DNA of 32,000 nucleotides. Origin: Xanthomonas campestris pv. campestris str. ATCC 33913 (lineage in GTDB: Bacteria; Pseudomonadota; Gammaproteobacteria; Xanthomonadales; Xanthomonadaceae). The first letter of the stretch is position 1; each line of letters starts with the position of its first letter. A model generated the notes under the pieces. That model searched no databases, was not told the origin of the DNA, and saw only the letters and a list, made by a program, of their open reading frames with translations. The position numbers were made by a program, and so were the translations under genes. Where the stretch lies: the NCBI RefSeq assembly GCF_000007145.1, contig NC_003902.1:4286497-4318496 (forward strand), read 5' to 3'. Of this stretch, positions 18,615-20,268 are shown piece by piece.

Positions 18615-18932
18615 ATGGAAACCCTGCGTTATCGCTTCGATGGCCGCAATGGCGCACGCACCGGGCTCGATCACGCCCTGGTCGGCGTGGTCGCCTCCGG
18701 CAATCTGGAAGTGCTGGTCGAGCGCGTGCCGCTGGGCGGCGCGATGGAGATCGAAATCGTCACCGCCGCACGCGGCTTCGGTGAGATCTGGCAAGCGGTG
18801 CTGGACGATTTCGCCGCGCGTCATTCGCTGCAGGACGTGCGCATCAGCATCAACGATGTCGGCGCTACGCCGGCGGTGGTGAGCCTGCGTCTGGAGCAGG
18901 CCATCGACGTGCTGCAAGGAGCCGACGCATGA
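18615..18932 (+). CDS. mdcC: Malonate decarboxylase acyl carrier protein (delta subunit)
   Basis: 105 aa. METLRYRF... VGVVASGNLEVL contains the prosthetic-group serine context. Position after mdcA. Confidence 0.9.
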   Translation: METLRYRFDGRNGARTGLDHALVGVVASGNLEVLVERVPLGGAMEIEIVTAARGFGEIWQAVLDDFAARHSLQDVRISINDVGATPAVVSLRLEQAIDVLQGADA

Positions 18933-18949
18933 GCCGCCACGATCCAGCA

Positions 18950-19345
18950 CACACCCATGACCTCGTAGGAGCGCGCTTGCGCGCGAGAGGCATGACCGGT
19001 AAGGCCTCAATCGCGCACAAGTGCGCTCCTACGCAAGCAGTCACCAGCCGATGCATCAGCACCGTAGGAGCGCGCTCGCGCGCGAGGGGCATGACCGGTA
19101 GAGCCTCAATCGCGCACAAGTGCGCTCCTACGCAAGCAGTTTCCAGCCAACGCATCAGCACCGTAGGAGCGCGCTCGCGCGCGATGGGCGTTACCGGTAA
19201 TGCCTCGATCGCGCACAAGTGCGCTCCGACGCAAGCAGTCGCCAGCCAACGCATCAGCACCGTAGGAGCACGCTCGCGCGCGATGGGCATTACCAGTAAC
19301 AACGCCTCAATCGCGCCCACCTGCGCTGCTACGCACACCATCAGG
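18950..19345. repeat. Four tandem 99-bp units, each an inverted REP pair (BIME-like array), between mdcC and mdcD
   Basis: GTAGGAGCGCGC starts at 18965, 19064, 19163 and 19262 (period exactly 99). Each unit also carries the inverted copy tcgcgcacaagtgcgctcctac. The whole gap is covered by track ORF 18929..19357. Confidence 0.9.
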
Positions 19346-19353
19346 AGCCGCGC

Positions 19354-20268
19354 ATGAGCACCACCGTTCCCATGGCCGAGCGCAGCTACTACGAAGCCGA
19401 CGCGCGCGAGCGCATCGACGGGCTGCTGGACGCCGGCAGCTTCACTGAATTCGTCGGCCCACGTCGCCGCCTGATCAGCCCGCACCTGGCGCAACTCGAC
19501 ACGCCCGGCGCGTTCGACGACGGCATCGTGGTCGGCGAAGGGCGCCTGCGCGGACGCCACGTGCTCATCGCCGCCCAGCAAGGCGCCTTCATGGGCGGTG
19601 GCGTTGGCGAAGTGCATGGCGCCAAACTCACCGGCTTGCTGGAACGCGCCGCAGCCACCACGCCCGATGCGGTGGTGCTGCTGCTCGACACCGGCGGCGT
19701 GCGCCTTCACGAAGCCAATGCCGGCTTGATCGCCATCTCCGAAATCATGCGCGCCACCCTGGGTGCCCGCGCGGCCGGCGTGCCGGTGCTGGCGCTGATC
19801 GGCAGCGGCAATGGCGCCTTCGGCGGCATGGGCATCGTGGCGCGCTGCTGCAGCGCGGTGATCATGTCCGAAGAAGGGCGGCTGTCGTTGTCCGGCCCGG
19901 ACGTGATCGAAACCGTGCGTGGCGTGGAAGAATTCGACGCACGGGACCGCGCGCTGGTATGGCGCGTCACCGGCGGCAAGCACCGCTATTTGATCGGCGA
20001 TGCACAGACGCTGGTGCCCGACCGCATTGCCGCGTTCGCAGACGCCGCGGCCACCACGCTGGACACACTGGCCGAGCCGCAGGGCGATGCCGCGTTGCAG
20101 GCACTGGAGCGCGAACACCACGCGCTGGCGGCGCGCATCACCGCGTATGGCGACTGCCGCGACGGGGTGGAGATCTGGCGCCGCCAGGGCATTGCCGACC
20201 CGGAGCGCTTGCCGCTGCTGGACACCGACGCCTTCCTCGCGGCCACTGCCGACCGGAGCACGCCATGA
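19354..20268 (+). CDS. mdcD: Malonate decarboxylase beta subunit (carboxyltransferase)
   Basis: 304 aa. AGGAG lies 7 nt upstream. SYYEADARERIDGLLDAGSFTEFVGP and the carboxyltransferase-like core AFMGGGVGEVHGAKL...LLLDTGGVRLHEANAGL. Confidence 0.9.
   Translation: MSTTVPMAERSYYEADARERIDGLLDAGSFTEFVGPRRRLISPHLAQLDTPGAFDDGIVVGEGRLRGRHVLIAAQQGAFMGGGVGEVHGAKLTGLLERAAATTPDAVVLLLDTGGVRLHEANAGLIAISEIMRATLGARAAGVPVLALIGSGNGAFGGMGIVARCCSAVIMSEEGRLSLSGPDVIETVRGVEEFDARDRALVWRVTGGKHRYLIGDAQTLVPDRIAAFADAAATTLDTLAEPQGDAALQALEREHHALAARITAYGDCRDGVEIWRRQGIADPERLPLLDTDAFLAATADRSTP

Follow-up and report, generated by a model that had tools for sequence, protein, structure and literature searches.

A tandem REPIN cluster between mdcC and mdcD of Xanthomonas campestris and its probable persistence as a translated relay cistron

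The insert between mdcC and mdcD

The malonate decarboxylase (mdc) operon of Xanthomonas campestris pv. campestris str. ATCC 33913 lies in the 32,000-nt stretch of DNA analyzed here (NC_003902.1, positions 4,286,497 to 4,318,496; hereafter the window, to which coordinates refer), and it carries a cluster of REPs (repetitive extragenic palindromes) between two of its genes. The upstream gene, mdcC (18615..18932; NCBIfam TIGR03130, E = 4e-36), encodes the acyl carrier (delta) subunit and ends in a TGA at 18930-18932, and the downstream gene, mdcD (19354..20268; NCBIfam NF005530, E = 2e-127), encodes the beta subunit; both genes and all features of the insert are on the plus strand. The gap between them (18933-19353) measures 421 nt, as an earlier reading of the window from its letters alone (the sequence-only reading) had reported. 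Also as described there, the gap is spanned by an uninterrupted bridge open reading frame (ORF) of 142 codons (18929..19357), free of internal stops, whose ATG overlaps the mdcC stop codon as ATGA (18929-18932) and whose TGA overlaps the mdcD start codon as ATGA (19354-19357). An identical bridge ORF is encoded in AM920689.1, where it is called a gene, and in further assemblies. An AGGAG Shine-Dalgarno sequence within the 3′ end of mdcC (18917..18921) lies 7 nt upstream of the bridge ATG; the same AGGAG is the Shine-Dalgarno sequence of mdcD in the empty-site junctions of the insert-free relatives X. bromi and X. prunicola. A duplicated copy (19343..19347) lies 6 nt upstream of the mdcD ATG at 19354, so that a stop/start overlap and a Shine-Dalgarno sequence inside the upstream ORF, the sequence marks of a coupled gene pair, are found at both ends of the bridge. 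Rfam at gathering thresholds gave no match in the mdcC-mdcD gap, its sole match in the window being the Xanthomonas small RNA sX9 (31007-31081; 94.7 bits, E = 3e-16), and a promoter and terminator scan found no site within or beside the gap.

Tandem Repeats Finder reports a repeat at 18964-19335 with a period of 99, 3.7 copies, and 89% matches. Each unit consists of two GTAG-type REPs in opposite orientation, with arms of 23 nt that are 87-91% complementary and 24 nt apart; the GTAG super-family is defined by an outer GTAG tag followed by a GC-rich stem-loop (PMC3733652), and here both REPs of a pair, GTAGGAGCGCGCTCGCGCGCGA and the inverted ...GCGCTCCTAC, have the tag at their outer end. The head-to-head palindrome pairs of the sequence-only reading are therefore REPINs, paired and inverted REPs that are set apart by a short spacer and fold into a hairpin, and whose tandem "ordered clusters" include flanking sequence (Bertels & Rainey 2011, PMC3116915). 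Unit 1 (18964..19062) has its forward REP at 18965-18986 and its reverse REP at 19011-19032 and is predicted to fold as an RNA hairpin of -51.5 kcal/mol; the corresponding values for unit 2 (19063..19161) are 19064-19085, 19110-19131, and -46.4 kcal/mol, and for unit 3 (19162..19260) they are 19163-19184, 19209-19230, and -45.6 kcal/mol. Unit 4 (19261..19353; REPs at 19262-19283 and 19311-19332) is degenerate, contains a 3-nt insertion, and forms a weak hairpin (-28.6 kcal/mol, z = -1.8). As RNA, units 1-3 range from -46 to -51 kcal/mol with z = -5 to -9, and for the region as a whole the fold is -242 kcal/mol (z = -8.8). The forward REPs start at 18965, 19064, 19163, and 19262, spaced by 99, 99, and 99 nt, and the reverse REPs at 19011, 19110, 19209, and 19311, spaced by 99, 99, and 102 nt. 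The 99-bp period of the sequence-only reading, and the 33-aa peptide repeat that goes with it, were thus recovered, but its four units of exactly 99 bp were not, since the array is preceded by a non-REP leader of 31 nt (18933..18963) and ends in the degenerate unit. The element is dispersed: a solitary REPIN of the same type lies at 5140-5206, a further REP copy starts at 21664, an array of related REPs is found at 15098-15295, and the REP motif occurs in at least 118 metagenome contigs.

When empty sites are compared with filled ones, the gene junction is seen to be duplicated in degenerate form, over about 30-35 nt, on the two sides of the REPIN. A filled site reads Shine-Dalgarno sequence and ATGA, REPIN, and a second Shine-Dalgarno sequence and ATGA with the first mdcD codons, and it has ATGA at both ends, whereas the empty sites of X. 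bromi and X. prunicola have a single ATGA. The leader, which repeats the first mdcD codons in degenerate form, makes up the left half of this duplication, and unit 4 ends in an intact junction copy that includes the mdcD Shine-Dalgarno sequence. The inter-REPIN spacers (19033-19063, 19132..19162, and 19231-19261) are decayed copies of the junction from Shine-Dalgarno sequence through ATGA to the 5′ end of mdcD; set side by side, the sequences show that in X. campestris GGAG has become CCAG and ATGA has become ATCA, with one extra nucleotide, while in X. hortorum the internal junction copies are still intact. On this anatomy, the array grew by duplication of the REPIN together with the junction, and internal starts and stops were later lost and the mini-ORFs fused. 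The 421-bp gap is a tandem REPIN cluster in the ancestral 4-nt ATGA overlap of mdcC and mdcD.

The open frame of this one window is weak evidence. Two of the six frames are open across the gap, the second of them antisense; a 36-codon stretch at 66% GC has, by our own estimate, a ~40% chance of being free of stops; and with a 99-nt period just one unit has to be stop-free. A long ORF through a REP array need not be coupled, as is seen in an unrelated contig (L214, 860-1546), where a 228-aa ORF runs through a REP array and is coupled to neither neighbor. The argument of the sequence-only reading from a period divisible by three and coupled ends is therefore insufficient alone, and the significance of the bridge ORF rests on comparison across species. 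An antisense gene was rejected as the source of this constraint on the frame, since the antisense frame that X. campestris keeps open is closed in most other species.

The same observations lend something to the view that the element is untranslated and acts at the RNA level, its very stable hairpins forming a 3′-exonuclease barrier or attenuator that sets the ratio of mdcA-C to mdcD-H expression, the ORF being a by-product of GC-rich palindromes. REPs in operons of E. coli and Salmonella act in this way (see the references in PMC3184786). Like the bacterial interspersed mosaic elements (BIMEs) and REPs of malE-malF and hisJ-hisQ, the mdc array places REP hairpins between the cistrons of a polycistronic mRNA; those elements occupy spacers that are not translated and affect mRNA decay or termination, whereas the mdc element lies within an open frame that is conserved and whose start and stop codons overlap those of its neighbors.

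Conservation of frame across alleles, species, and elements

The junction was compared across a cross-species set of 80 loci that encode relatives of MdcD. An ATGA overlap of mdcC with mdcD is present in about 45 loci of Stenotrophomonas and Pseudoxanthomonas and likewise in X. bromi and X. prunicola, and this overlap is the ancestral state. Two contigs carry the labels Nocardiopsis yanglingensis (L072) and Bacillus subtilis (L087); their mdc operons are Stenotrophomonas-like, with MdcD 79-80% identical to the query, and are probably assembly contamination. Most Xanthomonas species have one or more REPINs at mdcC-mdcD. Among X. campestris contigs with identical MdcC, gaps of 421, 322, and 223 nt correspond to 4, 3, and 2 units, so that copy number changes in steps of 99 bp; every X. 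campestris allele is in frame and open, with ATGA at both ends, which is expected for a 99-nt unit and not decisive alone.

A stricter test traced translation from the mdcC stop codon and allowed it to restart solely at starts that overlap a stop (NTGA or TGATG). An unbroken chain from the mdcC stop to the mdcD ATG was found in 34 of 35 distinct inserted alleles, and the only failure (L029), whose array contains Ns, was discounted as a fault of assembly. The chain is also kept by five independent insertions of other elements (L043, L052, L056, L071, and L095), among them a non-REPIN element of 193 nt (L043) and, in [Pseudomonas] boreopolis (L052), an insert of 1306 nt and 437 codons made of 9.7 units of 120 nt, in which only one of the six frames is open. 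Bridges consisting of a single ORF span 37 to 437 codons. Elsewhere the gap is crossed by chains of coupled mini-ORFs: 37 + 37 codons in the X. hortorum group, 67 + 40 in X. dyei, 62 + 37 in X. maliensis, and four mini-ORFs of 71 + 67 + 66 + 41 codons in Leaf148. The sequence-only reading had counted internal stops in orthologous arrays as evidence against selection on the frame, and such stops do occur in X. hortorum, X. dyei, X. maliensis, and Leaf148; each of them, however, is a TGA overlapped by an ATG (ATGA), so that they strengthen the idea of coupling instead of refuting it.

This diversity bears on a second possibility raised with the array, that the 142-aa repeat peptide is a functional REP-derived micro-protein. 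The ORF is open in all alleles and is annotated as a gene in some genomes. However, a search of 5.8 billion proteins returned four matches, of which three are alleles of this locus and the fourth is an ORF through an unrelated REP array; nothing in Pfam or NCBIfam scored above threshold, the only sub-threshold hit being "Phage_cement_2" (E = 0.003). Bridges at the same junction in other taxa derive from unrelated elements, have no sequence relation to it, range from 37 to 437 aa, and are in some cases split into two to four ORFs, and copy number varies within X. campestris itself. Homologs beyond the locus and amino-acid conservation, by which a conserved small protein would be recognized, did not emerge from these searches, and we regard a function of the peptide as very improbable.

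Frame is kept where length is not. Single-unit alleles of 106, 109, 118, and 121 nt differ only by multiples of 3, and in them frame +2 is open in 11 of 11 cases, against 2/11 and 4/11 for the other two sense frames. A start codon over the mdcC stop is kept in all 32 inserted loci, as ATG in 30; this left-end ATG requires an A at a third codon position, and A has a frequency of 7.6% at four-fold sites. On a neighbor-joining tree, allele lengths differ between close relatives, which implies many independent events, and empty sites are nested among filled ones. The empty ATGA sites of X. bromi (L022) and X. prunicola (L041) are of this kind, standing among insert-bearing species, which suggests either precise excision via the flanking direct repeats or repeated insertion at one site.

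The lengths can be tested more directly, because a single bridge requires a gap of 1 mod 3, and a tandem array requires a period of 0 mod 3 where units lack a junction copy and of 2 mod 3 where each unit bears its own ATGA. At mdcC-mdcD the periods without junction copy (99, 105, 117, 141, 150, and 120) are all 0 mod 3, as are those at other mdc junctions (129, 111, 66/33, and 30); the periods with junction copy (110, 185, 197/200/212, and, at mdcD-mdcE of L028, 176) are all 2 mod 3. None of these arrays violates the rule. Control REP arrays were taken from 118 unrelated metagenome contigs and from elsewhere in the window, with periods of 70, 208, 92, 71, 172, 42, 44, 94, 89, 113, and 68, and were joined with tandem arrays of the mdc loci that lie outside the junctions (48, 32, 171, 31, and 98); 3 of these 16 are multiples of 3. 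The contrast of 11/11 with 3/16 has p ~3e-5 (Fisher's exact test, hand-calculated). The control from the window itself is an array of single GTAGGAGCGGCC-type REPs at 15098-15295 (68 bp x 2.9, a period that is not a multiple of 3), which lies downstream of a minus-strand gene (15326-16168) with FAD_binding_9/SIP Pfam matches in related loci.

If only a new length or a new period is counted as an informative event, and copy-number changes of an existing period are not, mdcC-mdcD and mdcB-mdcH (see below) together provide an estimated 30 events at least, all of them frame-compatible, each with a 1/3 chance of fitting under neutrality. As a baseline, 107 co-directional intervals that contain REPs were taken from unrelated contigs, and about 6 of them form a chain, a figure good to an order of magnitude only, as the GC3-based (third-codon-position GC) gene caller is crude and calls shadow ORFs on both strands. 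An untranslated element acting through its hairpins leaves unexplained at least 30 independent length changes that all fit the frame, periods that without exception show the required 0 or 2 mod 3 when 3/16 controls are multiples of 3, and chain success of 34/35 against ~6/107; we consider it improbable as the account of the insert, although REPIN hairpins may modulate expression in addition to a role in translation. Frame, openness, and overlapping start and stop codons are very strongly conserved across alleles, species, element families, and junctions.

Bridges at other junctions and other loci

The rest of the operon was assigned by NCBIfam matches: mdcA (ORF 16857-18605, the match beginning at residue 39), mdcE (20265-20969), mdcG (20972-21613), the mdcB core (about 21967 to 22776, with a TAA stop at 22774-22776), and mdcH (22940-23860), followed by a MatC-type carrier and a GntR/FCD regulator. 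In one X. campestris assembly (L003, GCA_035059585.2), mdcA has a premature stop or frameshift, from a pseudogene or a sequencing error.

Two more junctions of the operon carry inserts in the window, both on the plus strand. At mdcG-mdcB (21610..21966), an ATG at 21610 overlaps the mdcG stop (ATGA). From it the frame runs through ~350 nt, with a REP at 21664-21685, into the mdcB core, which thereby gains a REP-derived N-terminal extension; the product has 388 aa, and its CitG domain begins at residue 125. Essentially all taxa examined have a start codon over the mdcG stop, the extra DNA keeps the frame throughout, and the distance from mdcG to mdcB is 2 mod 3 at every related locus. At mdcB-mdcH, a 54-codon bridge ORF (22779..22943) ends in a TGA that overlaps the mdcH ATG at 22940. 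This junction was ancestrally an ATGA overlap, and in other Xanthomonas its inserts of 130-646 nt form a single ATGA-to-ATGA ORF in 18 of 18 distinct alleles; these bridges have 45-217 codons, and in L026 and L028 they consist of a different palindromic repeat with a period of 129. Lone inserts at mdcD-mdcE (L028) and mdcE-mdcG (L071) likewise keep continuity.

Similar arrangements were seen outside the operon. On two unrelated metagenome contigs a REPIN bridge joins other gene pairs: tRNA_Me_trans (mnmA-like)-ATGA-38 codons-ATGA-DUF489 in L103 (minus strand, 1871-1987), and FtsX permease-GTGA-53 codons-ATGA-CitMHS transporter in L208 (822-983). These two are among the ~6 chains of the baseline. 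In L151 and L112 similar bridges are made of other palindromes. Within the window, the MatC-type carrier gene (23899-25305) and the GntR/FCD regulator gene (25385-26104) are linked by a 28-codon GTGA...ATGA mini-ORF with a GC-rich hairpin (25302-25388), which may be another small relay cistron or may be due to chance. Tandem repeats also lie downstream of the GntR gene, at 26485-26660 (18 nt x 9.8) and 26927-27219 (128 nt x 2.3).

There are hints here of a general rule, in that at least three junctions of the mdc operon, unrelated elements, and the L103 and L208 loci all follow the same pattern. The rule would be that palindromic mobile elements in NTGA junctions survive only as translated relay cistrons with duplicated junction flanks, in REPIN-rich Xanthomonadaceae and perhaps in other bacteria; we put it forward tentatively, at a little short of even odds.

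Probable translational coupling through the insert and its known counterparts

We propose, with a probability of roughly 60%, that the insert has been retained as a translated relay cistron, which keeps mdcC and mdcD translationally coupled and whose peptide is functionless. Ribosomes finishing mdcC would restart on the overlapping AUG of the bridge, translate through the REPIN hairpins and melt them in passing, terminate on the UGA lying across the mdcD AUG, and begin again at that AUG, so that mdcD (and mdcE) would stay coupled to mdcC even with 421 nt of selfish, strongly structured DNA in the way. Selection for ribosome transit (coupling) was one of the two alternatives offered by the sequence-only reading, and it is supported by the fact that every cleanly assembled inserted junction keeps translational continuity. 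Since frame, openness, and overlaps are conserved while peptide sequence, length, and element family are not, the act of translation and not its product appears to be selected. From this pattern we infer that the bridge ORF is translated and that coupling, by termination-reinitiation and/or RNA unfolding, the two current models (PMC12548453), is the selected benefit. In reporter experiments a distance of 20-38 nt between stop and start almost abolished reinitiation, and genes for the subunits of heteromeric complexes are enriched in short overlaps (PMC10666635); MdcC, MdcD, and MdcE are subunits of one enzyme. Given this collapse with distance, a structured insert of 100-1300 nt would be expected to uncouple mdcD unless it were itself a coupled cistron.

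The main rival is protection by ribosome cover, in which translation is needed just to shield the 100-1300 nt of otherwise bare RNA between the cistrons from Rho loading or RNase attack and the hand-over to mdcD is not selected. It accounts for the conservation of frame and openness as well as coupling does, and Rho is established as a cause of polarity on RNA that is not translated (PMC12548453). The region also has more C than G (GC skew -0.05 to -0.19), which fits such a shield. A shield needs no exact ends, whereas in essentially all alleles both ends and every internal link retain NTGA or TGATG overlaps. Strongly structured RNA, as REPIN RNA is, is moreover a poor substrate for Rho loading. 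On balance we judge the shield unlikely, if clearly ahead of an untranslated element.

Several observations besides the second open frame weigh against the relay cistron. The comparative data fit coupling proper and the shielding of mRNA from Rho or RNases alike. With its own well-spaced AGGAG, mdcD might initiate independently, and the X. campestris mdcB-mdcH bridge begins 2 nt past the mdcB TAA with no overlap. Retention of the left-end ATG may partly reflect phylogenetic inertia, because most four-fold sites are fairly conserved. A substitution test for stop avoidance in L052 had little power, with 1.3 stop-creating changes expected and 0 observed.

The closest counterparts of a relay cistron are the MIRUs (interspersed repetitive units of mycobacteria), described in the accounts given by two papers as intercistronic repeats of 40-100 bp, often in tandem, with tetranucleotide direct repeats (Supply et al. 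1997, via PMC12548453 and PMC3184786); according to the same accounts, their ORFs overlap the stop and start codons of the neighbors with a spacing of -4, which is thought to allow insertion with little effect on expression. Like MIRUs, the mdc elements are short tandem units of variable number between genes of an operon, with ORF ends that overlap the flanking stop and start, and their filled sites have tetranucleotide direct repeats, here ATGA. Unlike MIRUs, they are GTAG-tagged REP doublets with hairpins of about -50 kcal/mol, found in Gammaproteobacteria and not Actinobacteria, and their units are mostly without an internal ATGA and fused into a long ORF, whereas X. hortorum-type alleles keep a MIRU-like chain. 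The evidence differs as well, consisting here of cross-species conservation of frame at several junctions and for several unrelated elements. We liken the mdc array to a MIRU by its manner of working and not as a member of the MIRU family.

Other known systems share parts of the arrangement. The array resembles the ordered REPIN clusters in having inverted doublets with repeated flanks, which here are decayed copies of the gene junction; the REPINs of that study were described as extragenic and as spread at random through extragenic space, and frame constraint and translation were not considered there (PMC3116915). Intragenic REPs (PMC3733652) and Rickettsia palindromic elements (Ogata et al. 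2000) are, like the mdc inserts, palindromic mobile elements tolerated in frame within translated sequence, and the N-terminal extension of mdcB (21610-21966) is an exact case of an intragenic REP. The mdcC-mdcD insert differs from both in being its own cistron between genes and not a segment of a functional protein. With the ATGA termination-reinitiation pairs of Huber et al. (2019, 2023; PMC6728339, PMC10666635) the junction shares the 4-nt overlap, the upstream Shine-Dalgarno sequence, and partners that are subunits of a heteromeric enzyme, but the coupling here would run via one to four non-conserved cistrons derived from mobile elements.

The literature searched contained no paper that links REPs or REPINs to translational coupling, nor one that deals with repeats and malonate decarboxylase in Xanthomonas. 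In principle the architecture is already known, from the mycobacterial MIRUs. What appears to be new is that the same solution is reached by GTAG-type REPINs and other palindromic elements in Xanthomonadaceae, and that there is quantitative cross-species evidence of selection on the relay architecture. The MIRU idea is thereby extended to another class of element and another phylum. REPs and REPINs are usually treated as extragenic DNA or RNA elements, and short ORFs through them are dropped as annotation noise; the main survey of GTAG REPs, by Di Nocera et al. (2013), deliberately excluded REPs in hypothetical ORFs of <120 aa as spurious (PMC3733652). On the present reading, more than 30 independent frame-respecting length changes would be an evolutionary signature of ribosomes reading through such an element and of strong selection on the hand-over between subunit genes, and some of these "hypothetical proteins" would be features worth keeping, not proteins. 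The X. campestris alleles of 2, 3, and 4 units and the ~10-unit allele of [Pseudomonas] boreopolis offer a natural system for coupling through very stable hairpins. If the general rule is true, there would be a widespread class of ORFs derived from selfish elements with a sequence-independent function, and frame conservation would be a genome-wide readout of the operons that strictly need ribosome hand-over.

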